Assembly: GCA_947174835.1 (NCBI GenBank) | Contig: CAMWKM010000001.1 | Location: 1 to 62,565 of the forward strand | Length of the DNA: 62,565 nucleotides | Direction of reading: 5' to 3' | From: an uncultured Prevotella sp. | GTDB lineage: Bacteria > Bacteroidota > Bacteroidia > Bacteroidales > Bacteroidaceae | In this document: piece after piece, positions 2,473 through 28,521 of the stretch | Numbering within the stretch: the first letter of the stretch is position 1 | Layout of the letters: every line of letters begins with the position of its first letter | The notes under the pieces: model-generated | The model's database searches: none | The model's input: the letters and a program-made list of their open reading frames with translations, nothing else | Told to the model about the DNA's origin: nothing | Program-made: the position numbers and the translations under genes

Positions 2473-4395
2473 ATGAAAAAGAATCTGCTTTTCGTATGTC
2501 TTAGCCTCATTTGGTTTGGCTCAATGTCAGTTCAAGCTGACGAGATGGTAAGCAGCCCTGACGGGCGCCTCACCGTAGAACTCACAGTGAATAACGGACA
2601 TCCTTATTATCAGGTGTCCTACGACGGACAAGTGGTCATTGGTCAGTCAAAACTTGGCATTATGAGTAATATCGGCAACTATAATAGCGATATGACACTG
2701 ACAACCATTGTAACCAACGAAGTCAAGGAGGAATACGCATTGCGCAACATCAAACAAAGTCATGTCAACTACGAAGCCCGCGAGGCCATAGCCCAATACA
2801 TGCAGAAAGGCCAGCACGTGATGGACATCACCTTCCGCGTAAGCAACCACGATGTAGCATTCCGCTATACCCTCCTGCCAAAGAAAGAAACTCGTTGCTG
2901 TGTGATCAGTCAGGAGCAAACTGAATTTATGTTTTCCGAGACAACCACCAGTTTTCTGGCACCACAAGCAAAGCCAATGACAGGATTTGCCCGTACAGCC
3001 CCCAGTTATGAGACCCGATACGGAATCGATGAGCCCATTGGTAGGAACGGCTGGGGACAGGGTTATACGTTCCCTTGTCTGTTCAAAACGCCCTCGGCTT
3101 GGGTACTTGTCAGCGAAACGGGTACAGATGGCAACTACGTTGGTTGCCGTCTCGTCGGCCACGAAGGAGGCCGCTATCAGATTGGCTTCCCACAGGAGGC
3201 CGAGAATAATGGTTGGGGATCAACTTCTGTACAGATGTCCCTGCCCAGCAGTACGCCTTGGCGCACCATCACTGTAGGTTCACTGAATGACATTATCGGA
3301 ACCACTGTAGCATGGGATGTAGTAGAGCAGAAATATGAGGCCAGCCAACTATACGATTACGGCAAAGGCTCTTGGTCGTGGATCATCGGTATGGATCCAA
3401 GTTGCAACTTCAACGATCAGAAACGCTACATTGACTTCTCGGCTACTATGGGCTATCGGTCTGTGCTGATTGATGCCCTATGGGATGTGCAGATTGGCCG
3501 CGATCGCATCGCTGAACTGGCTCGTTACGGAAAGAGTAAGGGCGTAGGACTGTATCTATGGTATAATTCCAATGGTTCGTGGAACGATGCACCGCAGTCA
3601 CCACGTGGCATCATGGACAACGCCACGTTGCGTAAAAAGGAAATGAAATGGATGCACGACATAGGCATTCTGGGTATCAAAGTTGACTTCTTCGGTGGAG
3701 ACAAACAACCCATGATGCAACTTTACGAAGATATCCTGAGCGATGCCAACGACGCCGGTTTGATGGTCATATTTCATGGCTGCACCCTGCCCCGTGGTTG
3801 GGAACGTATGTATCCTAACTATGTTGCCAGTGAGGCCGTACTGGCCAGTGAGAACCTACATTTCTCGCAAGATTTCTGCGACAATGAGGCCCGCGACTGC
3901 GGAACTATGTATCCTTTTACCCGCAATGTGGTAGGCTCAATGGACTTCGGTGGTTCTGCCTTAAATAAGTTCTACAGCGCTGACAATAAACGTGGTAGGC
4001 AGCGCAAAACCACAGATATCTACGCTTTGGCAACAGCAGTTATCTTCCAAAGTGCTGTACAGCATTTTGCCTTAGCACCCAACAACCTGACAGATGCACC
4101 AACGTGGGCCATCGACTTCATGAAACAGGTACCCACCACTTGGGATGAGGTGCAATTCATTGATGGTTACCCCGGCCAGTATATCATCATGGCCCGCCGT
4201 ACCGGCAACAAGTGGTATATAGCTGGTGTAAATGCTACCGATCAGCCCATTAAGCAAACACTGACACTTCAGATGCTGAACAATGGTTCTGTACAACTCT
4301 ATCAGAACGACCAGCTTACCACAGCCAAACTATCGAAAAAGAAGACATTGAAAATAGAAATTCCCACCAATGGTGGTGTGGTTATCACCCAATAA
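2473..4395 (+). CDS. GH97 glycoside hydrolase (retaining, alpha-galactosidase type)
   Basis: SSPDGRL N-terminus, TPWRTI, YIDF, LIDALWD, GIKVDFF (Asp nucleophile type), FHGCTLPRGWERMYPN, GSMDF, VPTTWDE. Confidence 0.88.
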   Translation: MKKNLLFVCLSLIWFGSMSVQADEMVSSPDGRLTVELTVNNGHPYYQVSYDGQVVIGQSKLGIMSNIGNYNSDMTLTTIVTNEVKEEYALRNIKQSHVNYEAREAIAQYMQKGQHVMDITFRVSNHDVAFRYTLLPKKETRCCVISQEQTEFMFSETTTSFLAPQAKPMTGFARTAPSYETRYGIDEPIGRNGWGQGYTFPCLFKTPSAWVLVSETGTDGNYVGCRLVGHEGGRYQIGFPQEAENNGWGSTSVQMSLPSSTPWRTITVGSLNDIIGTTVAWDVVEQKYEASQLYDYGKGSWSWIIGMDPSCNFNDQKRYIDFSATMGYRSVLIDALWDVQIGRDRIAELARYGKSKGVGLYLWYNSNGSWNDAPQSPRGIMDNATLRKKEMKWMHDIGILGIKVDFFGGDKQPMMQLYEDILSDANDAGLMVIFHGCTLPRGWERMYPNYVASEAVLASENLHFSQDFCDNEARDCGTMYPFTRNVVGSMDFGGSALNKFYSADNKRGRQRKTTDIYALATAVIFQSAVQHFALAPNNLTDAPTWAIDFMKQVPTTWDEVQFIDGYPGQYIIMARRTGNKWYIAGVNATDQPIKQTLTLQMLNNGSVQLYQNDQLTTAKLSKKKTLKIEIPTNGGVVITQ

Positions 4396-4402
4396 GCATA
4401 CA

Positions 4403-6898
4403 ATGAAACGATTCTTTTCCTTCCTCGTAGCTATTACATCGCTTTGTATAGTACAAGCCACAGAACCATTCATCACGTTTAGCCCACAGCCTGATGCACT
4501 GGCACTGAAAGGGGCTACCATCAGTTTCAGTGAACAGGAATATGAAGGTGTGAAAATCGCCATCGAAAACTTGAAAGCAGATATGCAAAAAGTGGGCATA
4601 GCCCTCTCCCCATCAAAGGAATTGGGAGAGGTTTGCCTGCTAATTGGCACCCAAGGTAAGAATCCCGACATTGATCGTTTAAAACTGCCTGATTTAAAAG
4701 ACAAGCGCGAGAAATTTATTATCACAACAATTGGTCAGCAGGTGGTTATCGCTGGCAGCGACCGCCGAGGAACCATCTATGGCATCTATGAACTGAGTCG
4801 TCAATTAGGTGTATCACCTTGGTATTGGTGGGCTGACGCTCCAATAGAACAACACGAAACGGCCTATATAAAAAAAGGTACATACACCGACGGTGAACCG
4901 GCTGTAGAGTTCCGTGGATTATTCCTCAACGATGAAGCCCCTTGCCTAACCGGATGGGTAAAGAATACTTTTGGCACCAATTATGGAGATCATCGTTTCT
5001 ACGAAAAGGTCTTCGAACTAATTCTGCGTCTAAAAGGAAATATGCTATGGCCTGCCATGTGGGGCTGGGCTTTCTATGCTGATGATCCAGAGAACGGCAA
5101 GACAGCCGACAAAATGGGCGTTATCATGGGAACTTCGCATCATGAACCGATGGCTCGCAATCATCAGGAGTATGCCCGCCACCGCAAAGATTGGGGAGCT
5201 TGGAACTATCAGACTAATCAAAAGAAGCTCGACCAATTCTTCCGCGAAGGTATTGAGCGCATGAAAGGCACTGAAGACATGGTGACCATCGGTATGCGTG
5301 GCGATGGCGATGAGGCGATGAGCGAAGATGCCGACACGAAATTGCTCCAGCGCATCGTGGATAACCAGCGTAAGATCATCAAGGAAGTGACAGGTAAACC
5401 TGCCTCGAAAACCACTCAAGTATGGGCGCTCTACAAAGAGGTGCTTGACTATTATGACAAAGGGATGCGCGTGCCTGACGATGTTATCATGCTATTATGC
5501 GATGATAACTGGGGCAACGTGCGTCGTGTACCTGCGACAGAGAAGGAGCGCAAGCACCCCGGTGGCTGGGGACTCTACTATCATGTAGACTATGTTGGTG
5601 CTCCCCGCAACACGAAATGGATTAATGTAACTCAAACACAACAGATGTTTGAACAACTGTCTCTGGCCTACGACTACGGCATTCAGCGTATGTGGATCCT
5701 CAACGTAGGTGACCTAAAACCAATGGAATATCCCATTCAACTCTTCATGGACATGGCTTGGAATCCAAAGGAGTACACCCAGCAGACAGTTTTTGACCAC
5801 ACCCGTCGGTTCTTCGGCAGTGTGCTCAGCGGTCCTCTTGCAGAAGAAGCTGCTGCTATTTACAACCGCAACTGCCAATATATGGGTCGTGTTACCCCAG
5901 AGATGCTTGATGCCAAGACCTACAATTTAAATACTGGTGAGTGGAAACAAGTGGCTGATAATTACCAACGCTTAGAGCTTCGTGCCCTGCGCCTCTATGA
6001 AGACATTCCTGTCGAGGCTCGCGACTTCTATCGTCAATTAGTACTATTCCCCGTACAGGCCATGGCTAATCTCTACGATATGTACTACGCTCAAGCCATG
6101 AACCAATACCTTTCCAAACAAGGTAGTCCCGATGCCAATATGTGGGCCGCAGAAGTGAAGCGCTGTTTCAAACGCGATTCCCTACTCTGTCATCATTATA
6201 ATAAGACAATGAGCGGTGGCAAGTGGAATGGTTTCATGACACAAAAACACATCGGCTATCGCTCTTGGAACGACAACTTCCCCCACGATATGTTGCCAGC
6301 AACCCAAACCATCCCCCTCAATTCTCCAAACGGTTACACCTTTTCCCATAGCAATGGCTACGTATCAATGGAAGCAGAGCACTTTTTCCAAGCCAAAGCC
6401 ACCGATGGAACCGAATGGAGCATCTATCCTGACTATGGCCGTACCCGCAGTGCCATTGCACTGACACCTTACACCGCACCCGTAGGCGATGCCACCCTCA
6501 CCTATCGTTTCACCTTGCCCGAAGGCACTGACAAGGTAAAAGTACATGTAATAGTAAAGTCTACTCTTGACTTCCTCAACGTAGGGGGACACGAATATAC
6601 CATCAGCCTCGACGATTCAAAAGCACAAACGGTCAACTTTAACAAAACACTTGTCGACCGTCAACCCTATATGTACTCAGACTTCTATCCCACCATCGCC
6701 CGCCGTGTAGTAGAAAAGGTGGTAGAAATGCCTGTCAATAAAAAAGGTGCAACGCACGAACTAACGTTGCACCCCTGTCATCCGGGTATTGTTTTTGAAA
6801 AAATCGTAGTAGATTTCGGTGGCTACCAACCAAGTTACCTATTCGGCACAGAAACGGAATACGTGAAAGGCGACATCGGCAATCCAGTCTTGCCATAG
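4403..6898 (+). CDS. GH115 xylan alpha-1,2-glucuronidase
   Basis: GSDRRGTIYGIYELS..GVSPWYWWAD, FRGLFLNDE, WPAMW, GTSHHEP, GMRGDGD, DDNWGN, YYHVDYVG; ATG at 4403 begins a signal peptide. Confidence 0.93.
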   Translation: MKRFFSFLVAITSLCIVQATEPFITFSPQPDALALKGATISFSEQEYEGVKIAIENLKADMQKVGIALSPSKELGEVCLLIGTQGKNPDIDRLKLPDLKDKREKFIITTIGQQVVIAGSDRRGTIYGIYELSRQLGVSPWYWWADAPIEQHETAYIKKGTYTDGEPAVEFRGLFLNDEAPCLTGWVKNTFGTNYGDHRFYEKVFELILRLKGNMLWPAMWGWAFYADDPENGKTADKMGVIMGTSHHEPMARNHQEYARHRKDWGAWNYQTNQKKLDQFFREGIERMKGTEDMVTIGMRGDGDEAMSEDADTKLLQRIVDNQRKIIKEVTGKPASKTTQVWALYKEVLDYYDKGMRVPDDVIMLLCDDNWGNVRRVPATEKERKHPGGWGLYYHVDYVGAPRNTKWINVTQTQQMFEQLSLAYDYGIQRMWILNVGDLKPMEYPIQLFMDMAWNPKEYTQQTVFDHTRRFFGSVLSGPLAEEAAAIYNRNCQYMGRVTPEMLDAKTYNLNTGEWKQVADNYQRLELRALRLYEDIPVEARDFYRQLVLFPVQAMANLYDMYYAQAMNQYLSKQGSPDANMWAAEVKRCFKRDSLLCHHYNKTMSGGKWNGFMTQKHIGYRSWNDNFPHDMLPATQTIPLNSPNGYTFSHSNGYVSMEAEHFFQAKATDGTEWSIYPDYGRTRSAIALTPYTAPVGDATLTYRFTLPEGTDKVKVHVIVKSTLDFLNVGGHEYTISLDDSKAQTVNFNKTLVDRQPYMYSDFYPTIARRVVEKVVEMPVNKKGATHELTLHPCHPGIVFEKIVVDFGGYQPSYLFGTETEYVKGDIGNPVLP

Positions 6899-8781
6899 GC
6901 ATTGGCACGAACGGGATTGTTTTTCCAAGCATAACGCACACGTTGCGGATTTTCAAAGGGCGACTGGATAATGATTCGGTCGCCCTTTGCAGTGGCCTCC
7001 ACATTATGGAAACGACCATCGGCACTGGCCACCTCAAACTCATAGAGAGAGCCATCTGTACGCAAAGGCTGATCAAGTGTTAGAACAACCTGCCGGCCAT
7101 CAGCCTCAGCCTTGATCACTTGAGGTGACAATAATGTTTTTTTATTCCAAAGCGTATGCTCAAACCCAAGGGCAATGCGCTGTGCAACCTCACGTTTACG
7201 CAATGGATGGATATCAACAGCCTCACCTAAATCAATGGCACAAACCAGTTCAACATTGTTAAGTTTAGCGGCCACTTGTCGCTGAGCCTCTCGCACAGTA
7301 CTCCACCCCGTGTCCTGCGGTTTGTCGCTGGGTTCCATAAAATTAGCCAACTGCACGATAACGAAAGGCAATTCGGGCTGTTTCCAAAGCTGTCGCCAGC
7401 CAGTGACCAACTCAGTAAGCCAAGTCTCATAGTTGCGGGCATCACCCCCCGTATTCGATTCGCCCTGATACCAGACCACCCCTTGCAAAGCATAAGGAGC
7501 CAGAGGATATAGCATCGCATTATATAATACGGTGGGTAAATTCTGCCCACCGGCATCAATGCCCGGACACGGTTGCATCTTTACCCCCTCATGTACCCGC
7601 CACTGATCACTAAGAGGCACCTCAGTGCCGTCGTCGAAGATGAGCATATATGGTTTCTCAGGGATGAAATGAGGAGCACCGCCCTTTGTAACGAAACGCA
7701 CAGTAAGCGCATTACGCCCCTTAACAAGGAGTCCGGCAGGGATCGTATAGCGACGCGGAGGATACTGATACCCCGTAGAACCTACCTGCTGACCATTCAC
7801 ATAAGTCTGATCAGCATCGTAAAGCGTGCCAACAAGCAGACGGCATGACTGTCCAGCATGAGCAGCGTCAATCTCTACATACTGACGAGCCCAAAAGGAA
7901 CCCTGATAACGAAAATCATTGGTCAGGTTTACACTCTGCGGACGACCGTTAGCCTGCATACTAAAAACCTTCTTCACCTCCCACTGACTATCATCGAAAC
8001 CGAGAGCATCATAATGCTCGATGAAACCCGGATCGGTTTCATTCATGATAGCCTGCCAACGGTTCTGTGCCAACATACCGGCACGCTGCATAGCACGCAC
8101 CATCTCATCGTCCTGATAGAACTGCGTACGATGATATTCACCGGGGAAATGCTGCTGCAACGTATCGGCAGAGAGCCAAGCCTGAATGGGCGTACCTCCC
8201 AGCGAGTTGACAATGACACCTTGCGGCACACCAGTCTTCTCAAACATCTCGCGACCAAGGAAATAGCCCACAGCCGAGAACAGCCAAGCATTATCTTTCG
8301 TCACAGGCTTCCAGTTGATAGGAGTCGGTTTCACATCATGCTTTGGGCCGTGAGTATCGTAATCAGTCTGCACACGGAACATACGGATCTGCGGATTCTG
8401 GTAATCATCGATCAACTTACCGTATTGCGGATAGACACGCTCAATGGTCACATCAATGTTCGACTGTCCGGAACAAAGCCACACATCACCAACAAGACAA
8501 TCCTCTATCGTCCGATCATTGACGGTCAACGTATAGGGGCCTCCTGCCTTTTGCTGGGGCAACATGATCTGCCATCGGCCGCTATCATCGGCCGTAGTCT
8601 CATAAACCTTTTTACGAAATGTCACACTGACACGCTCACCGGCATCAGCCTGTCCCCAAACAGGTATGGGTTTACCTCTCTGAAGCACCATACCATTCTG
8701 AAACATCTGCGGCAACTGCACCTTGGCTTCTGCCGTCATTGCGCCTAAAAACGCAAACATCACGAATACAATTGTTCTCAT
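6835..8781 (-). CDS. Sialate O-acetylesterase (SASA, CE20-like) family SGNH carbohydrate acetylesterase
   Basis: MVLQRG..VWG, GDVWLCSGQSN, FSAVGY, LYNAM..PL..WYQGESN, DIHP, VRYAW; ATG at 8781 begins a signal peptide. Confidence 0.88.
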   Translation of the reverse strand: MRTIVFVMFAFLGAMTAEAKVQLPQMFQNGMVLQRGKPIPVWGQADAGERVSVTFRKKVYETTADDSGRWQIMLPQQKAGGPYTLTVNDRTIEDCLVGDVWLCSGQSNIDVTIERVYPQYGKLIDDYQNPQIRMFRVQTDYDTHGPKHDVKPTPINWKPVTKDNAWLFSAVGYFLGREMFEKTGVPQGVIVNSLGGTPIQAWLSADTLQQHFPGEYHRTQFYQDDEMVRAMQRAGMLAQNRWQAIMNETDPGFIEHYDALGFDDSQWEVKKVFSMQANGRPQSVNLTNDFRYQGSFWARQYVEIDAAHAGQSCRLLVGTLYDADQTYVNGQQVGSTGYQYPPRRYTIPAGLLVKGRNALTVRFVTKGGAPHFIPEKPYMLIFDDGTEVPLSDQWRVHEGVKMQPCPGIDAGGQNLPTVLYNAMLYPLAPYALQGVVWYQGESNTGGDARNYETWLTELVTGWRQLWKQPELPFVIVQLANFMEPSDKPQDTGWSTVREAQRQVAAKLNNVELVCAIDLGEAVDIHPLRKREVAQRIALGFEHTLWNKKTLLSPQVIKAEADGRQVVLTLDQPLRTDGSLYEFEVASADGRFHNVEATAKGDRIIIQSPFENPQRVRYAWKNNPVRANAYGKTGLPMSPFTYSVSVPNR

Positions 8782-8789
8782 ATCAAGTG

Positions 8790-8797
8790 CAAAAATA
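8790..8797 (-). promoter_or_regulatory. -7 element TATTTTTG (very short leader to the esterase ATG)
   Basis: TAnnTTTG match 8 bp from the start codon. Confidence 0.55.
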
Positions 8798-8846
8798 ATG
8801 TTTCTTAATAAGAAAAACAACTCATTTCTGTGTCTTTACAGTTTCA

Positions 8847-8905: not shown

Positions 8906-8913
8906 TACCTTTG
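8906..8913 (+). promoter_or_regulatory. -7 element TACCTTTG of the MFS-GH43-ECF-GH67 operon
   Basis: TAnnTTTG 29 bp upstream of the ATG at 8943. Confidence 0.72.
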
Positions 8914-8942: not shown

Positions 8943-10361
8943 ATGACAGATTCAACACAACAAAAAGGTTTCTACAAACTATCATGGATGCAGCGCATCG
9001 GCTTCGGCTCGGGCGACTTGGCACAGAACCTCATCTACCAAACTATCAGCATGTACTTGCTGTTTTTCTACACAGACATCTTTGGCCTCGAACCCGGTCA
9101 TGCCGCAGTCATGTTTGGCGTGGTACGTATCATTGACGTGCTGTGGGATCCTCTTGTGGGTACGTTTGTTGATAAGCATAACCCGAAGTTAGGCAAGTAT
9201 AGGGCTTATCTGGTATTGGCAGGCATCCCGCTTACAGTGCTGGCCATTTTGTGCTTTTGGAACGGATTTGCAGACAGCGCATACACTACAAAACTAATCT
9301 ATGCTTATATTACTTACGTAGGTATGTCAATGCTTTACACATTGATTAATGTGCCTTACGGTGCACTGAACAGTTCCTTAACGCGTGATACCGACGAAAT
9401 CACCATACTCACCTCTACACGCATGTTCATGGCCAACATAGGTGGTTTGGCAGTATCGGCAGGCATCCCCATTCTCGTGGCAATCATGGCTGGTATTGTG
9501 GACATTCCTTATGAAATGGCATTGTTCATGGGACTTGGTTCGTTGCCCTCGTTCATCTTCATGCCTATGGTACCCGCAATTAAAAAAGCGGTAGGAAAGA
9601 AGAATATGTTCTACATCTTCTTGTCAGTTGCTATCGTAGGCATGGCTATGCTCTACATCATCACCAAGACAATGGATATGAAGGAGAATATGGTACTTAT
9701 TTATGTGGCACAGTTTATCAAATCAACGGGTATTATCGTTGCAACCGGTTACATGTGGGCACTTATTCCAGAAGTCATTTCCTACGGCGAATACACTACA
9801 GGCAAGCGTATTTCGGGCATCGTGAATGCTCTGACGGGTATATTCTTTAAAGCCGGAATGGCCGCTGGCGGTGTAGTACCAGGCATCGTATTAGCCTACA
9901 CCAATTACAAGGCTGCAGCCGAAGAAGCAAGCACTCTTCCCAAAGACTCAAGCGCATGGTTCTACACTATGCTAATCTTCTCGCTCGTGGGTCTTGCCTT
10001 GTTGATTTTCTGCTTCACACAATGTAAGGAGCGTGTAGTAATGGATGCAAAAGAAACAGAGAATGTAAAAGTGAGCGATTTGTGGGTGGAGTTCTTCCAT
10101 AACCGTCCGTTGCGCATTGTGGCTCTGTTCTTCATCACTGCTTTCGCCATGATGTCAGTAGGCAATGCTGCCGGTGCATACTATATGAACAATCTGCAAG
10201 CGCAAACTCCTTTGGCTCAGGAAGGCATTCTGTGGCTCGTGTGCGTAATCCCTGCCGCCTTACTGCTCCTCGCTATGTTCATCATTTCTAAATATGAACT
10301 AAGCGACGAAGTCATTGACAAAATCAACAAAGAAATCGAACAACGTAACAAAAATAACTAA
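8943..10361 (+). CDS. GPH-family MFS xyloside/cation symporter (XynT/XynD-like) with permuted helix order
   Basis: GFGSGDLAQN, DVLWDPLVG..D..GKYR, INVPYGAL..LT, E..GKRISG motifs; 12 hydrophobic segments; ATG at 8943. Confidence 0.9.
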   Translation: MTDSTQQKGFYKLSWMQRIGFGSGDLAQNLIYQTISMYLLFFYTDIFGLEPGHAAVMFGVVRIIDVLWDPLVGTFVDKHNPKLGKYRAYLVLAGIPLTVLAILCFWNGFADSAYTTKLIYAYITYVGMSMLYTLINVPYGALNSSLTRDTDEITILTSTRMFMANIGGLAVSAGIPILVAIMAGIVDIPYEMALFMGLGSLPSFIFMPMVPAIKKAVGKKNMFYIFLSVAIVGMAMLYIITKTMDMKENMVLIYVAQFIKSTGIIVATGYMWALIPEVISYGEYTTGKRISGIVNALTGIFFKAGMAAGGVVPGIVLAYTNYKAAAEEASTLPKDSSAWFYTMLIFSLVGLALLIFCFTQCKERVVMDAKETENVKVSDLWVEFFHNRPLRIVALFFITAFAMMSVGNAAGAYYMNNLQAQTPLAQEGILWLVCVIPAALLLLAMFIISKYELSDEVIDKINKEIEQRNKNN

Positions 10362-10368
10362 TAACATT

Positions 10369-11370
10369 ATGAAACCCAGATACCTATTTCCCAGTGACTA
10401 TATGGCTGATCCTTCGGCCAACGTGTTCAACGACCGCTTATATATCTATCCCAGTCACGACTGGGAAGCAGGCGCAGCCTTCGATGATGACGGCGGACAC
10501 TTCCAAATGAAAGACTACCACGTGCTATCACTCACCGACGTAGAAAACGGTGATGTGACCGATCACGGAGTAATCCTCGATGTGAAGGATGTGCCCTGGG
10601 CAGAGAAACAAATGTGGGACAACGACGTAGTGGAGAAAGACGGCAAGTATTACCTGATCTTCTCAGCCAAAGACTACAATGGTGTGTTCCATCTGGGAGT
10701 CGCCATTGCCGACAAGCCCGAAGGCCCATTCGTACCTCAGGAGCATCCCATCCGTGGCTCGTTCTCCATTGATCCCTGTGTCTTCAAAGACGAGGATGGC
10801 CAGATCTATGTTTACTTCGGTGGTCTTTGGGGAGGCCAGTTGCAGTGGTATCAAGCCCCGGCCACACTTCAGAAGGCAGGTATTGACCTTGGTCCCGCTG
10901 CCGACAAGAAGACCCAACTCTACACATCGCCTGATGCTCCGGCCCTGCCCAGTTGTGTTGTTCGCCTAAGCAACGATGTGCTCCAGTTTGCCGAAGCCCC
11001 GCATCCGGTCATTATTCTCGACAAGGACGGACAACCTCTAAAGGCAGGCGATCCTCACCGCTTCTTCGAAGCCTCGTGGATGCACAAGAAAGACGGAAAG
11101 TATTACTTCAGCTACTCCACCGGTGACAGTCACCTGTTGTGCTATGCCATCGGTGATAGCCCCTACGGTCCCTTCACTTTCCAAGGCGTACTGCTCGACC
11201 CCGTGGTAGGCTGGACCACCCACCACAGCATTGTAAAGTACAAAGACGAGTGGTTCCTGTTCTACCACGACTGCGTACCCTCCAATGACATCACACATCT
11301 ACGCTCACTAAAGGTACAACGTCTGTTCTACAACGAAGACGGAACTATCCAGAAAGTCGTGAATGAATAA
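10369..11370 (+). CDS. xynB: GH43_1-type cytoplasmic beta-xylosidase/alpha-arabinofuranosidase
   Basis: YMADPSA..YIYPSHD, MKDYHV, SIDPCVF, FGGLWGGQLQ, FFEASW, GWTTHHS; no signal peptide; follows the MFS gene as in Prevotella/Bacteroides xyn operons. Confidence 0.88.
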   Translation: MKPRYLFPSDYMADPSANVFNDRLYIYPSHDWEAGAAFDDDGGHFQMKDYHVLSLTDVENGDVTDHGVILDVKDVPWAEKQMWDNDVVEKDGKYYLIFSAKDYNGVFHLGVAIADKPEGPFVPQEHPIRGSFSIDPCVFKDEDGQIYVYFGGLWGGQLQWYQAPATLQKAGIDLGPAADKKTQLYTSPDAPALPSCVVRLSNDVLQFAEAPHPVIILDKDGQPLKAGDPHRFFEASWMHKKDGKYYFSYSTGDSHLLCYAIGDSPYGPFTFQGVLLDPVVGWTTHHSIVKYKDEWFLFYHDCVPSNDITHLRSLKVQRLFYNEDGTIQKVVNE

Positions 11371-11878
11371 CCAAGACATTATAGAAGACTATTATCGTAA
11401 GCACAGAGGTGAGATTCTCACCTTTGTGCGCGTTCGTCTTCAATACAGTGATGAGGCAGAGGATTTGGTGCAGGAAGCTTTCTTGCGCCTGCTCAGTGGC
11501 AACCGCCTCATCAACAAGATCACGCTACCCAGTTTGGTCTACACACTCTGCCGCAACCTCATTACCGACTGGTATCGCCACCATAGCGTGCGTCAAGATG
11601 CCGAGCATAACATCAGTTACTCATTGACGGTCAATGGCCAAAACACCTGTGCCGAGACTGCCGAATCGATGCTTTCCATACGTGAAATCAACGAACAACT
11701 GGAGCGTGGTCTGACCCATGTGCCTCAAGAATGTCGTGAACTTTACCGGATGCACATCTATGGTGCCATGCCCATTCGCGACATTTGCCTACAGACCGGC
11801 CAGCCTTACAAGGCTGTAGAATACAGATTGGGGCAAGCTCGCAAACAAGTAAGAAATCAATTACGATACATTATATGA
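11363..11878 (+). CDS. ECF RNA polymerase sigma-70 factor
   Basis: Region 2 AEDLVQEAFLRL..RNLITDWYR; region 4 HTH (PQECRE..IRDIC..KAVEYRLGQARKQVR); 171 aa. Confidence 0.85.
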   Translation: MNNQDIIEDYYRKHRGEILTFVRVRLQYSDEAEDLVQEAFLRLLSGNRLINKITLPSLVYTLCRNLITDWYRHHSVRQDAEHNISYSLTVNGQNTCAETAESMLSIREINEQLERGLTHVPQECRELYRMHIYGAMPIRDICLQTGQPYKAVEYRLGQARKQVRNQLRYII

Positions 11879-13656
11879 AAAAGATCCTCCTACTCGCTCT
11901 CTCACTCTTTGTTTCCTTTCTCTCTTTTGCCGAGGATGGCAGCCGGCTATGGCTACGCTATGACAGTACCTTGGTGAAGAACATCACCCTGCAGATAGAT
12001 TCCACGATGCCCGATGACGACGGCTATCGCATCGAAGGCCACACGGTTTCTGCCCGTACCGAGATGGGATTGCTCTATGGTAAGTATGCCTTCCTGCGAG
12101 GCGAGCAAGGTGAATCGCACCCCTACTTCCATCTTCGCCTCCTCAATCACTGGGACAATCTCGATGGATCCATTGAACGAGGCTATGCAGGAAAAAGTAT
12201 TTTCTGGGATCTTTCTACTGCCCTCTCTCCGTTCGGAGAGGAAAATGAGGCACTTATCCACCAATATGCCGAAGCCAATGCCTCTATCGGCATCAACGGC
12301 ACAGTGCTCAACAATGTGAATGCCTCACCGAAGATGCTGACCCGTCCTTATATAAATAAGGTGAAGGAGATTGCCGATATATTGCGCCCTTGGGGCATCA
12401 AGGTCTACTTGAGCGTGAATTTTGGCACACCGAAAGCATTGGGCGAGACAAAAACGGCCGATCCACTGGACCCGCAAGTGCGCCGTTGGTGGCAACGCAA
12501 GGCAAAAGAAATATACCAGCAGATACCCGACTTCGGTGGATTCCTCGTCAAAGCTAACAGCGAAGGACAGCCCGGCCCGTTCGATTATGGTCGCACCCAT
12601 GCCGATGGTGCCAATATGTTGGCCGATGCCCTGAAACCATACAATGGCATTGTCATGTGGCGGTCGTTTGTCTATGGTGCAAAACACAAGGGCGAAGACC
12701 GTGTGATGCAGGCTGTCAGCGAGTTCGCAGAACTTGACGGACAGTTCCGCGACAATGTTATCCTACAGTCAAAGAACGGCCCACTGGATTTCCAGCCACG
12801 TGAACCTTACGCCCCCATCTTCGATCAGATGAAGCAAACTCCACAAATGGTCGAGCTACAGATTACACAGGAATACCTTGGACAGGGCGACCATCTGGTA
12901 TTTCTCGCTCCCATGTGGAAAGAATTCTTTTCCCATGTCAGTCCCTCTCGCCTGCAGGGCATTGCCGGTGTGGCTAACATCGGCCTCGACAAGAACTGGT
13001 GCGGTCATCATTTCGCACAAGCCAACTGGTACGCTTTCGGCCGTTTGGCCTGGAATCCCAGCCTGTCATCGAAGCAGATTGCAGAAGAATGGCTCCGTCA
13101 GACTTTCTCTCCCACCTTGCAATCTACGCTCCAATCCATGCTCCTTCGCTCTCGCGAAGCCTGTGTAGACTACATGATGCCCCTCGGACTACACCACATC
13201 TTCAAGTTCGACCATCACATGGGCCCGGAGCCTGATGGCTTCAAAGCCGCGTATCCCATCGAGTGGTGCCCCGTCTACTACCATAAAGCCGACAAGCAAG
13301 GCATTGGTTTCGACCGTTCCAGTCGCGGCACTGGTGCTACCCGGCAATATTGCGAGCCTTACCGCACACTCTACGACAGTCCAACAACCTGCCCTGAACG
13401 ATATCTACTCTGGTTCCATCACCTGCCGTGGGACTACCGCACACTGAGCGGTCGCACCCTTTGGGAAGAAATGCAATACCGCTATCAGAGAGGTGTCAAT
13501 GAGGTGGAAGACTTTATTCGTATATGGCAGGAAGCCCGCCCAGACGTTGATGAACAACGCTGGCAGGAGGTGAACGACAAGTTACAGAAGCAATTGCGCG
13601 ATGCCCAGGAATGGCGCGACGTATGTATAAAATACTTCGGAGAGATACATCTCTAA
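11875..13656 (+). CDS. GH67 alpha-glucuronidase
   Basis: EDGSRLWLRY, RLLNHWDNLDGSIERGYAG, LNNVNA, VKANSEGQPGP, KNGPLDFQPREP, ELQITQEYLG; ATGA overlap with the ECF stop. Confidence 0.93.
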   Translation: MKKILLLALSLFVSFLSFAEDGSRLWLRYDSTLVKNITLQIDSTMPDDDGYRIEGHTVSARTEMGLLYGKYAFLRGEQGESHPYFHLRLLNHWDNLDGSIERGYAGKSIFWDLSTALSPFGEENEALIHQYAEANASIGINGTVLNNVNASPKMLTRPYINKVKEIADILRPWGIKVYLSVNFGTPKALGETKTADPLDPQVRRWWQRKAKEIYQQIPDFGGFLVKANSEGQPGPFDYGRTHADGANMLADALKPYNGIVMWRSFVYGAKHKGEDRVMQAVSEFAELDGQFRDNVILQSKNGPLDFQPREPYAPIFDQMKQTPQMVELQITQEYLGQGDHLVFLAPMWKEFFSHVSPSRLQGIAGVANIGLDKNWCGHHFAQANWYAFGRLAWNPSLSSKQIAEEWLRQTFSPTLQSTLQSMLLRSREACVDYMMPLGLHHIFKFDHHMGPEPDGFKAAYPIEWCPVYYHKADKQGIGFDRSSRGTGATRQYCEPYRTLYDSPTTCPERYLLWFHHLPWDYRTLSGRTLWEEMQYRYQRGVNEVEDFIRIWQEARPDVDEQRWQEVNDKLQKQLRDAQEWRDVCIKYFGEIHL

Positions 13657-13835: not shown

Positions 13836-15758
13836 TTACCCAACTGCCGCCAACGACAGTTCAATGATAAAGCGGCAACCCTCGTGATAGGTGGGGTCAA
13901 GAATAAGAGTACCACCCATGTTCGTTATATGCCGTTTTGCAAGCGGAAGCCCCAATCCGAGTCCTTCGGAAAGATCATCGGCCTTAGTGAATGGCTGGAA
14001 AATATGGGGCTGATAGTCAGGAGATATGCCCACCCCTTTATCTTCGAAAACAAGACGAACCACCGCATCATGGGCTGAGACCGTCAGAGAGATGTGCTGC
14101 TTATCGGAGTATTTTACAGAGTTGCGGATCAGTTCTGCGATTGTCCTGCTAAGATAGACAGGTTCGGCTTTAACGGTCAACGTGTCTGGAATTGTTGTAT
14201 GGAAGTCAATGTTCACGTCACCGAACCACTTGGCAATAACCTCTACGGCCTCCCGTGCCACCTCATTGCATCGCACATCCTGCAAACTGCTGTTTTTCTC
14301 CTCTATGGTGCCCACCTCTGAAGTGTCATAGAGCATCAGCACCATGCTCCAAAGTGCAGTCGTGTTATAGTTCATCACACCGGAAATACTTTTCATTTCT
14401 TCCGGCGGCAGACTATTACCGCTATCGCGAAGCACTTGTGCAAAACCTATGATAATATTAAGCGGTGTACGTATCTGGTGCGCCATGTTCTGAATGAAGG
14501 TATTCTTCTTCTGCACAGCGTCCTCGACTTCTAAGCTGGCCAGCCGGAGTTCCTCGTTGCGTCGGGCTCTCTCTTCATTCGCACGCAGGACATCATTCAC
14601 ACGTTGGCGGAGCGTTCTCTGCATCAAAGCAAAACTGTTCTGCAGCCATCCCACCGCATCTTTGCGTTTCGTTGTAGGCAGCAGTTCAGAGAAATGACCT
14701 GAGGCGACGATATGTTGAGACTGTTCCAGCAATAGGTTTAGGGGACGAATAACATGGGCTACGACACGACGACAGAACAGGAGGATGAACAAAAGGCCAC
14801 CTGCGGTCAATAGCAGGATGCCGAGTGTCATCCGGTTATAGTCACCCAGAACGTCGCTTTTGGGACAGACTACGGCAAGACTCCATCCCGTTCCGGCAAT
14901 CGGCTGATAGCACACAAGACAAGGTTTGCCATTAACATTGACTTCCATGCCACCTTTCTGCCCTGTGGTCATTTGGTGTCCCAGAGCGATCATATCCAAC
15001 TGACGGACGTTATCGGTTACCATATCAAAGATGGTTCGATCGTTTTGACGTGTGGAATCCGGATGCCACAAGAAGTGTCCCTTTGGTCCCAATATAGCGT
15101 AATAGGCATTTGGAGTAGGTTTCTCTGCTTGAATGACATCTACCAACATGGATAACGACACATCGGCAGAGATAACGCCAACCATCTTCCCTTTAGCATC
15201 GTAAAGCGGTTTGCAATAAGAAGTTATCTTCTCTGGTGCCGAAAGCGTACCCTCAGTGTAGTCATCATAGGGTTCAACCCAGCAACCCTTTCCCAGTTCT
15301 CGCGGGTTCTTGTACCACGCCTTATCGAAATATTCATACTCCCTTTTGCGGACGGTGATGATGCTGTCACCCTTTCTGACAGAGTAAGCAGAGAAGTATC
15401 GACCATACTCCGGAAAGGTATAGGGTTCTGCTGTGATAGAACATCCACTTGTATTAGGGTTAATGGCTACAATACGTCGCGAAAAGGCGAGCATCGATTC
15501 AGGGTCGAAATTCTCCATCACAAGCCACTCGTTGGAATTAATAGCCGTCTCAATGATTCCCAAAAAGCCGTTTGCACGCTCCACCGTTGCATTGAGCACA
15601 CTACCGACCCGGCTTGCTGCCTCATTCTTGATATGGGATCTTGACTGTACGAACAGAATGCCCATCACTGCTCCGAAGACAAGTATGGCCAACAACTGAA
15701 TACCGAAACTAAGTTTCAGTGCCAATGATTGTTGTATATGACGTATGAGATTCTTCAT
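13836..15758 (-). CDS. Membrane sensor histidine kinase (TM-dCache-TM-HAMP-HisKA-HATPase)
   Basis: WY..P..WVEPY.D Cache motif, HAMP (RPLN..DAVGWLQNSF), H-box MAHQIRTPLN, N-box NSVKY, DKGVGI, GLGLGL. Confidence 0.9.
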   Translation of the reverse strand: MKNLIRHIQQSLALKLSFGIQLLAILVFGAVMGILFVQSRSHIKNEAASRVGSVLNATVERANGFLGIIETAINSNEWLVMENFDPESMLAFSRRIVAINPNTSGCSITAEPYTFPEYGRYFSAYSVRKGDSIITVRKREYEYFDKAWYKNPRELGKGCWVEPYDDYTEGTLSAPEKITSYCKPLYDAKGKMVGVISADVSLSMLVDVIQAEKPTPNAYYAILGPKGHFLWHPDSTRQNDRTIFDMVTDNVRQLDMIALGHQMTTGQKGGMEVNVNGKPCLVCYQPIAGTGWSLAVVCPKSDVLGDYNRMTLGILLLTAGGLLFILLFCRRVVAHVIRPLNLLLEQSQHIVASGHFSELLPTTKRKDAVGWLQNSFALMQRTLRQRVNDVLRANEERARRNEELRLASLEVEDAVQKKNTFIQNMAHQIRTPLNIIIGFAQVLRDSGNSLPPEEMKSISGVMNYNTTALWSMVLMLYDTSEVGTIEEKNSSLQDVRCNEVAREAVEVIAKWFGDVNIDFHTTIPDTLTVKAEPVYLSRTIAELIRNSVKYSDKQHISLTVSAHDAVVRLVFEDKGVGISPDYQPHIFQPFTKADDLSEGLGLGLPLAKRHITNMGGTLILDPTYHEGCRFIIELSLAAVG

Positions 15759-17248
15759 TTTCCCAATTTCTCTTGTGATACGCCCATCAGTTCGTTTAGT
15801 TGCTTTGTGATTATCTTGCTATTCTGCAGAATGTCATCAACCAGTTCGTCAGTCCTTTTGCGCTCAATATCCCAACTATTATCGCACAGCACACGAACAT
15901 TGTCACGAATGACGTTGACGGGATCCATCAACTGCCCTGACATGCGATGCAAGAAAGCTATCTTTATCTGATCAGCTTCCTTGGCTTGTTCATAAGCCTT
16001 CTCCAGTGCCTCTTCCTTCTCCTGCAATGTCTCGACTGACAATTTCAGTTCCTCTCTTTTGGCAGTTAAAGACTTTTGCATTTGCCGGAAATTAGCTTGC
16101 AATCGTCCTACCTCATCATCTCTCAGACTCACAGGAATAGGGTCATCGTAATTTCCATCGGCAATACGTCGTGTTTGCTTGGCAAGCTGTCTGAGTGGCC
16201 GAAATTGACGACTGACAATAATCAGGCAGGCCAGAAAAACGAATAGCAAGCCGACAATGGCCACGACAAGTACAACGATTTTCAATTCATTGTATTCACC
16301 AAAGACATCATCCTCGGGGAGCACGATACCAGTACTCCACCCCAATTCCTCTGTTGAGCGTCCCGCAACCGGTGTGCGTACAAAGGGCTTATAGAACACA
16401 TAGTTGTCGGTGCCGTCCAGTCTGACATGGCGATAATCAGTCTTACCGGCCATCATTGCTTTAGCTGCTTGCTGGACAGATGGATCCATCTGTGCGAGTA
16501 CCATCTCATTGAGTCGTTTGGAACTATCGGGATGTACGATATACATGCCATTCTCGGCCAGCAGAATAGCATAGGAATTAAGCGACGGCTTGGCAGCCAT
16601 GACAATACGCGTCAGCAAGTCTATGGACACATCGGCAGCCAAGACTCCCACCACACGTCCCTCTCTGCTATAGATAGGCAGACAGAAAGTCGTAATCGTC
16701 CCCCCCCCATAATCCTTCAGGGGACCGACCCAGCAAGGACGTCCGGTCTGCATAGGCTTCATATACCATGCCTGTTCCGTATAGAGGGTGTTGCCAAAGG
16801 TTTCAGATTGAACAATGGTATCGTTACCTACCTGCTGGTCCATTGGATTTCTATAGTCGCTATGATAGAAATAAGCCATGAAGTACTCACCCTTATCCTT
16901 ATAATAATAAGGTTGCATGGCAATGGCACATCCAGTGATATAAGGAGAATCTTTCACGAGCATCTTACTGTAGGCGTACATCCTATCAGGCTCATCCAGA
17001 TGCTGCATCAAGTCGTAATAGACATTACCCGTAGCCTGTTCAACGGATAGCAGAACATTGTCAATATGCTGCACCGTAGCTTCAAGCGTCTGTGATGCGT
17101 TCTGGAGTGCTTCCTCCTTTATCACCTTACGCGAATATCGTAATGCGGCAAAGAGTATCACCATCAGCAAAATAGCAATAGCACCTAAAAGTGCCAAGCT
17201 AAGACGCAAGGATAGTATTTGTCTAAGTTTCTTAGTTCGATTGCTCAT
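15755..17248 (-). CDS. dCache-HAMP membrane sensor with degenerate His-less HisKA and no ATPase domain
   Basis: Paralogous to the downstream kinase; the H-box position reads FLHRMSGQLMDPVN; protein ends about 60 aa later; 4-bp overlap with the kinase start. Confidence 0.8.
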   Translation of the reverse strand: MSNRTKKLRQILSLRLSLALLGAIAILLMVILFAALRYSRKVIKEEALQNASQTLEATVQHIDNVLLSVEQATGNVYYDLMQHLDEPDRMYAYSKMLVKDSPYITGCAIAMQPYYYKDKGEYFMAYFYHSDYRNPMDQQVGNDTIVQSETFGNTLYTEQAWYMKPMQTGRPCWVGPLKDYGGGTITTFCLPIYSREGRVVGVLAADVSIDLLTRIVMAAKPSLNSYAILLAENGMYIVHPDSSKRLNEMVLAQMDPSVQQAAKAMMAGKTDYRHVRLDGTDNYVFYKPFVRTPVAGRSTEELGWSTGIVLPEDDVFGEYNELKIVVLVVAIVGLLFVFLACLIIVSRQFRPLRQLAKQTRRIADGNYDDPIPVSLRDDEVGRLQANFRQMQKSLTAKREELKLSVETLQEKEEALEKAYEQAKEADQIKIAFLHRMSGQLMDPVNVIRDNVRVLCDNSWDIERKRTDELVDDILQNSKIITKQLNELMGVSQEKLGK

Positions 17249-17257
17249 TCTTGACTG

Positions 17258-17265
17258 CAAAAATA
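17258..17265 (-). promoter_or_regulatory. -7 element TATTTTTG of the sensor pair
   Basis: TAnnTTTG 9 bp upstream of the ATG at 17248. Confidence 0.55.
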
Positions 17266-25683: not shown

Positions 25684-28521
25684 TTACTGCATCTTAGCAC
25701 CGGCAACAGTATATGTACCGTTTGCGCTTTCAACAACAATGCGGCCGTTCTTCATAACCTTGACAGGCTGAGCCTGTGTAGCAGTTGTTCCATAAACACC
25801 GCTTATGCCATCAGTAGGATCATCAGGAACATCGTCAGAAGGATAAACTACAATATAGTCAAGACCCCTCTTAATATCGCCACCAGCTTTCCAAATCAAT
25901 TCCGTAGCCTCTGTAACAGTAATAAGGTCAGATTCTACCTCGGTAAGGTTATCGGCTGTTGAAGCCAACTCAATAGTAGTCGCGTTACCAAGAGTAAATG
26001 TAGCAATGTAAGAGATTGGCTTAACATCAAAGAGACCAGCCTTAATCTTATAAGTTCCCGGCTGGAGAGTTGCGAGAACTATATCATTCTCATTGTATGC
26101 TGCCTTCTGGTTTGAAGCACGTACACCCATATTTCCTTCTGTGAGAAGAGTAGTACCCTCTATATCCTCACCCTCAACGCAAAGCACTGCGTCCGTGATA
26201 TAGTCACACTTCTTATAAGTCACATTATAAGTACCCTCTGCAGACAATGTAAACGTTGAGGTGAACGGTGTGCCTATTGAACCGGCTGTATATACGTTAC
26301 CTGCAGCGTCGGCAAGATAGTAAGAATAGGTAACTTCTACCTTGTCATTGGTCATACCCTCGCCCTCGGCAAGTTTCTTAAGCACATTACCCTCTTCGTC
26401 AACAGCGTTAATGGTGTACTGAACGGTCTCCTTCTGGATAGTAGAAGGGAATACGCTGACAGCTTGGTAAACCACATTCTTGCTGGCAAGAACAAGATCA
26501 CCGTTCTCTGATACCGTTATCTTATACTCGGCAGAGCTTCCGGTAAGAGTAATAGTATTGGTTCCATCTTCTGCTGTACCATTGTTTATAGTAATAGTAC
26601 TGTTGTTCTTGGTAGACCAAAGTCCCTTGATTGTAACCTCGTCACCGGCGTTACAAGAAGGAATAATAAGGTTCGGAGAACCGCCACCCAACTGGAGACG
26701 ATCGTTATTGCCCTCAGGAGTACCAACGAGGATATCATTATCGTTGCTCATTGTGAACTCCAATCCGTCTGTAATTCTAAGCGGAGTACCCTCTGCTATC
26801 AACAAGGTTCTGTTGCCATTAGCGAACATTTTGGTTGAAACACTGTAACGTCCCTTAGAACTTGCGTTCCAATAGCCGAGTGCTACAGCTGCCGCAAGAG
26901 CCTCAGCGTCTTCTGCCGTGTTATGGAATTCCCATGCACGCGGCTCCTCTATGCCGGGGCCTGTGGTCTCAAATGAAAGCAGATAGAGGCCCTCTGCAGC
27001 CTCTTGGTTCAGAGCCTCATAGCCGTCAACAACGAGTTTAGTCAGATAGAACTCGTATGTTGTATTCTCAAGCAAACCACCATCAATGTAATCAGAGAAA
27101 GTAAAGGTAAGGCCCTCGCCCAACATAAATTCCACACCGTCAAACATATAGTTAGCCTTCTCGTCTTCGTCAAGACCGGCAGGACCACAGTAACCCTCAA
27201 TAGTGATATTGGCATCTCCAGCTACGTTAGCGGCCTTCGGGAAAGTCATCGTGAAGTCAACAGTTGACGGATTTATCTTGCTGCCGTTCTTCAGAGAATA
27301 TACAGGCTCACCCAGTTTCGGGTTCTTGTCTACTACAGTCTCATCCTTAACCTCGGCCTCTATAGAATAAAGGTGGCAACCCTTAGTTGCTGTAAGAACT
27401 ACGTCTACAAATTCATCAGAGCCTGCAGGAATAGTATATTCAAGTACGGCAAAGTCAGCAGTTGTTTGTGTTGTACCAACTTCTGTACCGTTAACAACAA
27501 CTTTGAAGCCACGAGCGTCACCGGGCTTGTGTGACTCAACACCGAGTTTGAATGTTGATCCGGCCTTAACATTAGGAACAACAATAGAAGATGAGGCACC
27601 TGTTATCCAAAGATAAGAAGGAGAAGCGTATGGACCCCATGCGTTAGTATCAAGCGTTTTCTGATAATTGAAAGCGGTAGCTATGCCGTACGCACCAAGA
27701 TTCTTGTGACCAAGGCCCTTCATCTCAGCAATAGCGGCACCACCGGCAACGAGGTCTCCGTTAGCGTCTACAGTCGGATTCAAAGCAAAACGGATTTCAT
27801 CACCTTCGATATAATCTTTTGATGCAGACTCGGCGGTAGTCCAATCCTCGGCTGCAAGAATCTGAGCCTTGGTAGCATCAGACCATTTTGTGAAGTCCCA
27901 TGTCTTGATATTCTTGTCACCTTCATCAATGATGATAGAACGAATCTCAATACCAGACTTAGGATCACCGGACAATCCGGTTGACAACTTAACAACACCA
28001 TCAGCTACTACAGTTGCCACAATAGTGTAGACACCGGGGGAGCCCTCTACATTATTACCTAAAAGAATAATGGAAGTCTCACCTTCTTCAGTCTGAGCAT
28101 TTGTCAAAGAGAAGCCACGATCAGTTGCAGTACCATTGGCAGACTGCGCAACAATTGTGATCTTCTGACCCGCAGACAAGGTCGGCAATGTGATAGAGCA
28201 ATTCTTCTGCAAACGAACACTGGTAATTCTGTACAGTACTGCGTTGGTGGCAGCAAAATCACCGAACCGCAAACCAGCGAACTCAGGAATGACAACATCA
28301 TTAGCTGTCAATTCGCCTTCAAAGGATTTGTTTGTTGCCCATGCTGTGCTCACGCCATCATCGTTAACAGTTTTGCTCCAAGAGGCAGCATCAGCGTCAA
28401 GCATTTCGCGACTGCTGTCACTCACTCCCTTAGTGAAATCCCATGACTTGCGGCTCTGCGCGTTAGCACCAAGCACCAAGAAGAGCATCACTACGGAAAG
28501 AATAGTAGAAATTTTCTTCAT
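25684..28521 (-). CDS. Acidic secreted protein of unknown function with three W(D/E)F-initiated repeat domains and a CTD-like tail
   Basis: Signal peptide; RKSWDFTK, IKTWDFTK, PRAWEF repeats; TDGISGV..KVMKNGRIVV..YTVAGAK C-terminus. Confidence 0.75.
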   Translation of the reverse strand: MKKISTILSVVMLFLVLGANAQSRKSWDFTKGVSDSSREMLDADAASWSKTVNDDGVSTAWATNKSFEGELTANDVVIPEFAGLRFGDFAATNAVLYRITSVRLQKNCSITLPTLSAGQKITIVAQSANGTATDRGFSLTNAQTEEGETSIILLGNNVEGSPGVYTIVATVVADGVVKLSTGLSGDPKSGIEIRSIIIDEGDKNIKTWDFTKWSDATKAQILAAEDWTTAESASKDYIEGDEIRFALNPTVDANGDLVAGGAAIAEMKGLGHKNLGAYGIATAFNYQKTLDTNAWGPYASPSYLWITGASSSIVVPNVKAGSTFKLGVESHKPGDARGFKVVVNGTEVGTTQTTADFAVLEYTIPAGSDEFVDVVLTATKGCHLYSIEAEVKDETVVDKNPKLGEPVYSLKNGSKINPSTVDFTMTFPKAANVAGDANITIEGYCGPAGLDEDEKANYMFDGVEFMLGEGLTFTFSDYIDGGLLENTTYEFYLTKLVVDGYEALNQEAAEGLYLLSFETTGPGIEEPRAWEFHNTAEDAEALAAAVALGYWNASSKGRYSVSTKMFANGNRTLLIAEGTPLRITDGLEFTMSNDNDILVGTPEGNNDRLQLGGGSPNLIIPSCNAGDEVTIKGLWSTKNNSTITINNGTAEDGTNTITLTGSSAEYKITVSENGDLVLASKNVVYQAVSVFPSTIQKETVQYTINAVDEEGNVLKKLAEGEGMTNDKVEVTYSYYLADAAGNVYTAGSIGTPFTSTFTLSAEGTYNVTYKKCDYITDAVLCVEGEDIEGTTLLTEGNMGVRASNQKAAYNENDIVLATLQPGTYKIKAGLFDVKPISYIATFTLGNATTIELASTADNLTEVESDLITVTEATELIWKAGGDIKRGLDYIVVYPSDDVPDDPTDGISGVYGTTATQAQPVKVMKNGRIVVESANGTYTVAGAKMQ

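Follow-up and report, generated by a model that had tools for sequence, protein, structure and literature searches.

A non-circularly permuted helix order in a GPH-family MFS transporter of a Prevotella xylan locus

The closest described systems to the transporter analysed here (P0001) are MelB of Salmonella (4M64, 7L16) and the GPH family (TC 2.A.2). P0001 contains all the profile segments and twelve helices of this family, keeps the equivalents of MelB D55, D59, Y120, T121, R149, and K377, and is predicted to retain the packing of TM1-5 and TM8-12, whereas its helices follow the order 1-5, 8-11, 6-7, 12 and its chain would cross between the two bundles three times instead of once. As regards function, the nearest systems are inner-membrane transporters of xylan loci, namely XynD of Segatella bryantii, BACOVA_04388, NQ544_12690, and CCG34738 of clone I7, for which the same role has been proposed and which have the same neighbours (GH10, GH43, GH67, GH115, and esterases). 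The comparison with these four is by description only, and the available parts of the descriptions do not mention any rearrangement; moreover, a given named xylan-locus gene may belong to either of two GPH groups, since a distant canonical paralogue is also present. This gene slot has been assigned to the import of short xylo-oligosaccharides for BACOVA_04388 and XynD (PMC8002723) and for S. copri NQ544_12690 (PMC11784079), and a review states in its accessible text that the MFS transporter of a Bacteroides xylan locus imports up to xylotetraose (PMC13543919). E. coli clone I7, in which a Prevotella GPH gene is the sole predicted glycoside transporter, is described as growing on XOS (PMC8990778).

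The rearrangement of helices in membrane proteins has been considered in several contexts. The helix-triplet "mix-and-match" proposal for the MFS (Madej and Kaback), rebutted by Vastermark and Saier in 2014 (both as described in PMC4889909), also concerns evolutionary rearrangement of MFS helices but, as far as the consulted text goes, it deals with three-helix units in remote families, whereas the case presented here involves two- and four-helix blocks in orthologues 72-80% identical, and it neither proves nor needs triplet shuffling. In bacteriorhodopsin, engineered non-circular permutations changed the connectivity and kept the function (PMC3879442); that protein has seven helices and no rocking bundles, while P0001 is a natural case in an alternating-access carrier. 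A circular permutation has been proposed between CysZ/YihY and mitochondrial carriers (bioRxiv 10.64898/2026.03.31.715626), which is likewise a natural helix permutation in a transporter but, according to the part of the preprint consulted, affects one helix and is based on remote structural homology, in contrast to the non-circular permutation of P0001, visible in plain sequence alignment. A naturally reordered or permuted MFS protein was not found in the literature searched, the scope of which excludes most subscription journals. The word stem "Permut" is absent from the available text of two MFS reviews (PMC13543919 and PMC8154325), and no reordered MFS case is found in the accessible parts of PMC8154325, PMC8778642, PMC8634118, and PMC9952236. 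This agrees with the sequence-only reading that preceded this analysis, which knew of no description of such an MFS.

The window, i.e., the whole stretch of 62,565 nucleotides of an uncultured Prevotella sp. that was analysed, holds a large xylan locus with GH97, GH115, acetylesterase, transporter, GH43, ECF sigma factor, GH67, and GH10 genes, among others. The transporter and its surroundings are as follows:

4370..6898 (+): GH115 family gene (glucuronidase), part of this xylan locus
6835..8820 (-): SASA-family acetylesterase gene, divergent
8906..8913 (+): TAnnTTTG match, 30 bases 5' of the start, a weak promoter candidate
8943..10361 (+): permuted GPH-family MFS transporter, 472 aa (P0001), from open reading frame and profiles
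10369..11370 (+): GH43 glycosidase, starting 8 bases past the transporter stop
11363..11878 (+): gene for an ECF-type sigma factor that overlaps the GH43 stop
11875..13656 (+): GH67 family gene (alpha-glucuronidase), part of this xylan locus

TAnnTTTG is the -7 promoter motif of Bacteroidota, and its presence here is barely above chance, with 5 matches in 3.4 kb against 2 expected and at least 5 in 13 of 200 shuffles. The GH43 glycosidase is likely a beta-xylosidase co-transcribed with the transporter. Among 80 permuted loci, a relative of this GH43 lies within 5 kb in 66 and a GH10 gene in 37, and canonical orthologues occur in the same gene order, transporter-GH10-GH43. Judging from the neighbouring genes and from the papers on this gene slot, the substrate of P0001 is likely to be short xylo-oligosaccharides. 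The RNA data listing yielded no record containing the transporter gene. As for clone I7, the gene order given in the available part of the supplement of PMC3774763 matches a canonical locus (L220), so this clone is not counted as proof of a working permuted form; the assay probably concerned the canonical form, which is 75% identical by segments.

The xylan locus runs on for about 40 kb (17443-56393), with a GH10-CBM6-esterase fusion, a glucuronyl esterase, GH5, GH98, a GH10-esterase, GH3, three GH43, GH31, a sugar isomerase with a fucose isomerase domain, and an RG lyase. Two of its open reading frames, at 197-2293 (-; 698 aa) and 25684-28521 (-; 945 aa), have no Pfam match, and the former is, we presume from its motifs, a GH43-type beta-propeller. 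Moreover, two tandem dCache sensor proteins are encoded at 13836-17260 (-), the upstream one with a HAMP domain and no kinase ATPase match.

The transporter gene is a single open frame and the only gene of the source genome that matches the NCBIfam GPH symporter profile TIGR00792 in a genome profile search. P0001 reaches 307 bits with this profile (cut-off 231) and 299 bits with Pfam MFS_2 (cut-off 27), in four stretches in both cases. Along the gene, the TIGR00792 stretches correspond, in this order, to profile positions 1-163 (8994-9488), 255-390 (9504-9929), 167-249 (9942-10187), and 387-437 (10197-10346). Naming the blocks A for TM1-5, B for TM6 with the central loop and TM7, C for TM8-11, and D for TM12 gives ABCD for canonical proteins and ACBD for P0001, i.e., TM1-5, TM8-11, TM6-7, TM12. 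The blocks and the junctions between them are distributed along the gene as follows:

8970..9479 (+): block A, TM1-TM5, residues 10-179
9480..9524 (+): junction 1, TM5 to TM8, 15 aa, residues 180-194, a predicted periplasmic inter-bundle strap
9525..9908 (+): block C, TM8-TM11, residues 195-322
9909..9953 (+): junction 2, TM11 to TM6, 15 aa, residues 323-337, a predicted periplasmic inter-bundle strap
9954..10187 (+): block B (moved), TM6, central cytoplasmic loop, and TM7, residues 338-415
10188..10202 (+): junction 3, TM7 to TM12, 5 aa, residues 416-420
10203..10361 (+): block D, TM12 and the C-terminal cytoplasmic helix

BLASTP of P0001 against its canonical orthologue P0135 gives four HSPs in shuffled order, as had been expected: query 3-183 with subject 5-180 (80%), 191-368 with 285-462, 305-420 with 165-281, and 421-469 with 423-471 (82%), the second and third of which over-extend into the neighbouring helix. 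Canonical orthologues 72-80% identical to P0001 likewise produce out-of-order matches, with the TM6-7 block behind TM8-11. The four segments of P0001 are 84, 76, 78, and 83% identical to those of P0135 and, therefore, no part has been lost or doubled. The sequence-only reading had proposed precisely this helix order, with an intact frame and no helix lost or duplicated, and had called it a non-circular segment permutation; all of this holds in the light of the profile order, the pairwise HSPs, the homologues that align collinearly with P0001 in their hundreds, and the comparison of models described below. By its sequence, P0001 is a GPH transporter that departs from the canonical MFS chain order, with helices that do not run from 1 to 12 and bundles that would not each be one continuous half joined by a single cytoplasmic loop. 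It does not show the extra or doubled helices of 14-helix MFS proteins of the DHA2 or POT type, nor is it circularly permuted, since both termini are canonical and two inner blocks are swapped.

The topology predicted for P0001 from the model spans and the K/R bias comprises twelve membrane helices with both the N and the C termini inside. Each new junction links an odd helix to an even helix and, with loop limits set by hand, the permuted topology places 25 K/R in 124 inside-loop residues and 5 in 81 outside-loop residues. The junctions lie where they had first been placed, the earlier proposal that in/out parity is preserved is upheld, and the two new inter-bundle links that had been suggested (TM5-TM8 and TM11-TM6) follow given the usual packing, for which the model backs TM1-5 and TM8-12, while the place of TM6-7 would be deduced from it. 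Linker lengths are narrowly distributed among 279 close permuted homologues: 14-17 aa at junction 1 in 263, 14-16 aa at junction 2 in 278, and 5 aa at junction 3 in 278. The 3' half of junction 2 resembles the TM5-TM6 loop of one canonical subgroup. In P0074, a permuted protein with 2 members, the TM11-TM6 linker has 71 residues, so this strap can be much longer.

AlphaFold, run with 60 permuted sequences for P0001 and 77 sequences for a canonical control, predicted twelve long helical spans for P0001 with a pLDDT of 86 and a pTM of 0.82, the control reaching 90.6 and 0.86, respectively. The five P0001 models range from 83 to 86 in pLDDT, with values of 84-96 in ten-residue blocks of the moved helices; confidence is lowest in the TM11-TM6 linker, where pLDDT falls under 50 at residues 327-329. 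Comparison with MelB by Foldseek, which is bound to chain order, gives a TM-score of 0.45 and an rmsd of 15.6 Å for P0001 versus 0.87 and 2.7 Å for the control. VIA-align, likewise chain-order-bound, superposes 358 residues of P0001 on outward-facing MelB (7L16) at 2.8 Å (Z 28.6) and 443 residues of the control at 2.5 Å. The 85 residues missing from the superposition match the size of block B and, hence, blocks A, C, and D are predicted to lie in their usual places; we infer that block B fills the two slots left, with TM6 in the N bundle and TM7 in the C bundle. Inward-facing MFSD2A fits the P0001 model worse (about 300 residues at 5.1-5.4 Å). As the model is nearer to outward MelB than to inward structures, the straps, which according to the sequence-only reading could constrain opening, do not seem to forbid the outward state, although a model of one state has no bearing on rates.

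The residues of the MelB site, whose roles are described for MelB in PMC4026327, are distributed over the blocks of P0001. In block A, D65, D69, Y132, T133, and N136 align to MelB D55, D59, Y120, T121, and D124, and R160 aligns to R149 one column off; in block C, K303 aligns to K377. About 100% of the 279 close permuted sequences share D65, D69, R160, and K303, and the other residues of the site (Y132, T133, and N136) hardly vary among them either. The equivalents of MelB D124, N58, K18, and D19 are N, W, Q, and N, two of which, N136 (D124) and N29 (D19), are common to close canonical orthologues. Since the D55 and D59 equivalents are kept while those of D124 and N58 are N and W, H+ seems more likely than Na+ as the coupling ion. 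The median dN/dS is 0.088 for the close permuted genes (first 150 qualifying pairs), 0.045 for a divergent permuted group (14 pairs), and 0.048 for canonical genes (first 150 pairs), values which indicate that the permuted gene is under purifying selection. By every indirect sign, the permuted transporter would be functional.

The permutation is real and widespread, and not a misassembly. Among the 120 best homologues of P0001, 117 align over 98-100% of the protein with 72-94% identity. Segment profiles classify 397 fetched proteins as 183 ACBD, 108 ABCD, 36 ABC, and 4 ABCBD, the rest being fragments, and, among a further 122 proteins, 117 as ACBD and the other 5 as partial or variant versions of that order; as permuted or mosaic queries were used to collect both sets, these counts are not frequencies. 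All 80 loci of the genome collection are permuted (78 whole and 2 cut by contig ends), and seven of them come from records named as Segatella copri, two of which are the complete chromosomes of HDD04 and HDD05. Sequences spanning the junctions had been sought as a check against misassembly, and one Logan contig covers 8700-10600 unbroken with 9 differences, while two other runs of the same study contain, respectively, all three junctions and the first two, although these runs may include the source sample.

The same order, for which a search of other Prevotellaceae had been suggested, is present well beyond S. copri. A probe of the TM11-TM6 junction finds matches in 156 of 301 genomes of the genus. 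In 53 of these genomes it matches over almost its full length and only once and, therefore, no close canonical copy was found there. Of these 53, 40 were newly fetched, all permuted (one cut by a contig end), four were already in the set, and nine were left. Fetching 80 weaker matches in the genus returned 69 canonical orthologues and 11 members of the divergent permuted group. At family level, 77 of 251 genomes match the probe, 14 of them strongly, and 20 fetched regions comprise 16 permuted and 4 canonical genes; in an even draw over the order, 17 of 401 genomes match, one being the genome analysed here, while the others have close permuted (2), divergent permuted (5), or canonical (9) genes. 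Among 400 genomes of the phylum, the junction probe detected no permuted gene outside Bacteroidales, the one other genome that matched being canonical. A permuted protein 56% identical to P0001 (P0249) is named from a Kiritimatiellae bin; records with Firmicutes names, which may be misbinned contigs, were left out. The ten plasmid matches listed are distant (27-48% identity), their helix order being unclassed.

Permuted and canonical alleles replace each other in place among close relatives. With S. copri HDD04 as the reference and 15 loci chosen for synteny, the flanks at four loci are 86-99% identical to those of HDD04 but surround a canonical transporter of only 70-74% identity in blocks A-C. 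At another four loci, most flanks reach 69-87%, whereas the permuted gene between them is 89-100% identical. This in-place exchange argues that both forms do the job. Moreover, block A recombines between permuted and canonical forms (P0223, L056).

A second permuted group is 42-47% identical to P0001 and lies on a very long branch. Its loci are:

L116:7515-8906, L200, L207, L228, L253, and L255: divergent permuted group
L260-L262, L266, L267, L271, L130, and L139-L142: further loci of the divergent permuted group

In 82% of 22 sequences of this group, the equivalent of MelB D59 (D69 in P0001) is S, which suggests that the group may be uncoupled or may have a different substrate. The divergent gene can adjoin a canonical gene (G024, G1285, G1271). 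The canonical genes closest to the permuted ones are a subgroup formed by L092, L195, L210, L245, L258, and their relatives. One canonical subgroup carries N in place of D65; the L092-type subgroup is probably the 35% of close canonical genes with N at the equivalents of both MelB R52 and D55. In addition, several xylan loci (L153, L173, L174, L195, L206, and others) contain another canonical GPH paralogue, which is distant, measures about 480-530 aa, and is often encoded directly 5' of GH10 or GH43. In a canonical GPH protein of 541 aa (L115:2766-4390, G028), about 84 inserted residues separate TM5 from TM6, at the site of one of the breakpoints.

A distant permuted query also led to proteins named from anaerobic gut fungi: Piromyces finnis (P0433, on a 159-kb contig), Piromyces sp. 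E2 (P0449), and Anaeromyces robustus (P0508), with about 20 further relatives on transcript-sized records (in the range P0431-P0454), the whole set being ACBD. Nine proteins of this fungal group, the three named and six others, form one clade (support 100/99), whose identity is 58-70% with the closest permuted genes of bacteria and 56-66% with canonical genes. These fungi thus appear to hold an expanded family of permuted transporters with more variable TM11-TM6 linkers, of up to 46 aa (P0272). The source of the fungal genes is likely transfer from gut Bacteroidales; for Piromyces E2, bacterial sugar transporters are listed among transferred genes in the consulted part of bioRxiv 10.1101/514042.

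Since every distant GPH protein is canonical, and the TM7-TM8 loop pattern of these proteins recurs in the close canonical genes, the permuted order is taken as derived. Two trees of blocks B and C place the close permuted genes with one canonical subgroup (support 85 in one tree and 95 in the other), whose TM5-TM6 loop resembles the new TM11-TM6 linker. The origin would likely be one event in gut Bacteroidales, in which TM6-11 (B-C) was duplicated in tandem and the first B and second C were then lost to yield ACBD, each step involving an even number of helices; the permuted allele would then have spread by locus replacement and by transfer to anaerobic fungi. This duplication-deletion path is our reconstruction. 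The 14-helix ABCBD proteins (1-5, 6-7, 8-11, 6-7, 12) found among the 397 (P0007, P0013, P0048, and P0203) were considered as ancestral intermediates and rejected as mosaics of living alleles, i.e., recent recombinants or assembly chimeras. Each is a single-member cluster on a contig of 3-6 kb, with an N part 95-99.7% identical to living canonical genes and, in three of the four, a C part 93-100% identical to living permuted genes; in P0013, the crossover falls in the conserved TM10 stretch. The ABCBD form was not found in 120 plus 20 genome regions, nor in the best 80 metagenome loci, from 34 of 64 parts scanned with search words that favoured the canonical half.

Such chimeric-looking forms in short metagenome contigs are what could be said for an assembly artefact in P0001 itself, but hundreds of diverged collinear homologues, complete chromosomes, and fungal genomes speak against it, independent assemblies at 42-94% identity already refute it, and a pseudogene is at odds with the intact frame and a dN/dS under 0.1; either explanation has a negligible probability. 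A double origin of the order, once in the close group (over 70% identity to P0001) and once in the divergent one, deserves more weight and is still unlikely. Free trees, which need 3-4 order changes and do not fix the root or the direction of change, split the permuted rows and keep the divergent group apart from the close one; the linkers of the divergent group between TM5 and TM8 and between TM7 and TM12 bear little resemblance to their counterparts in the close group; and both the S at the D59 equivalent and the adjacency to canonical genes would fit a separate history. Nevertheless, its very long branch has to be considered, uniting the 16 permuted rows against 20 canonical ones raises the score by 3.3 log units and is not rejected (p-AU 0.61), and breakpoints, linker lengths, and the sequence of the TM11-TM6 linker agree between both groups.

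With regard to mechanism, the permuted GPH protein probably packs as an ordinary two-bundle MFS transporter and performs cation-coupled import of xylo-oligosaccharides like its canonical orthologue. The chain would cross between the bundles three times, and the two new crossings would be straps on the periplasmic side, each with about 15 residues and hence of sufficient length for the protein to tolerate them; import would proceed by alternating access with a cation, as in the canonical orthologue of the same slot, and the adjacent GH43 would split the imported oligosaccharides. That there is no single-chain MFS core, e.g., with TM6-7 swapped between protomers or packed outside, is very improbable: the place of TM6-7 is deduced and the linker before TM6 is the part of lowest confidence, but the five models and the moved helices score well, block B is as conserved with respect to the canonical orthologue as the other blocks, and the 5-residue TM7-TM12 link would fit adjacent helices of one bundle. 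A more serious alternative, which we consider possible though distinctly less probable than ordinary packing and transport, keeps the same fold and substrate class and proposes that the straps change gating (a narrower or faster-closing outward state, with a different size limit or leak) and were selected for. The narrow linker lengths in bacteria, the location of 7 of the 10 columns separating permuted from canonical proteins within about ten residues of a new junction, the near-identical permuted alleles in species with diverged flanks, and the conservation of the order after transfer to fungi would all be in line with it, and tight linkers together with the spread of near-identical alleles could reflect changed function and not mere tolerance. 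However, canonical genes are at least as common in the genus, to judge from the weaker matches fetched, and also occupy S. copri-like loci, the fungal linkers vary more, breakpoint-near sites may stay linked simply because recombination cannot cross breakpoints, and the model is outward-facing like the control. An equally tentative, broader reading combines bundles that are not continuous chain halves, straps that tune gating, and a favoured allele that works in vivo, sweeps from one gut Bacteroidales species to another through replacement in place, and seeded both the fungal family and the divergent group, the latter having lost the main proton-site Asp.

Order-bound annotation methods hide the permuted form: databases describe these proteins as ordinary MFS transporters, and the Foldseek TM-score to MelB halves. 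Helix rearrangement in the MFS has been disputed on the basis of remote alignments (PMC4889909, as far as its accessible text goes), while here it is plain between orthologues of the same locus that are about 75-80% identical. A matched pair of alleles exists among S. copri-like genomes, a species for which allelic exchange is described as established (PMC8634118). This natural pair would allow one to ask whether a bundle must be a continuous chain in order to fold, given that four helices of the other bundle precede TM6 during synthesis, and whether straps on the periplasmic face alter alternating access.
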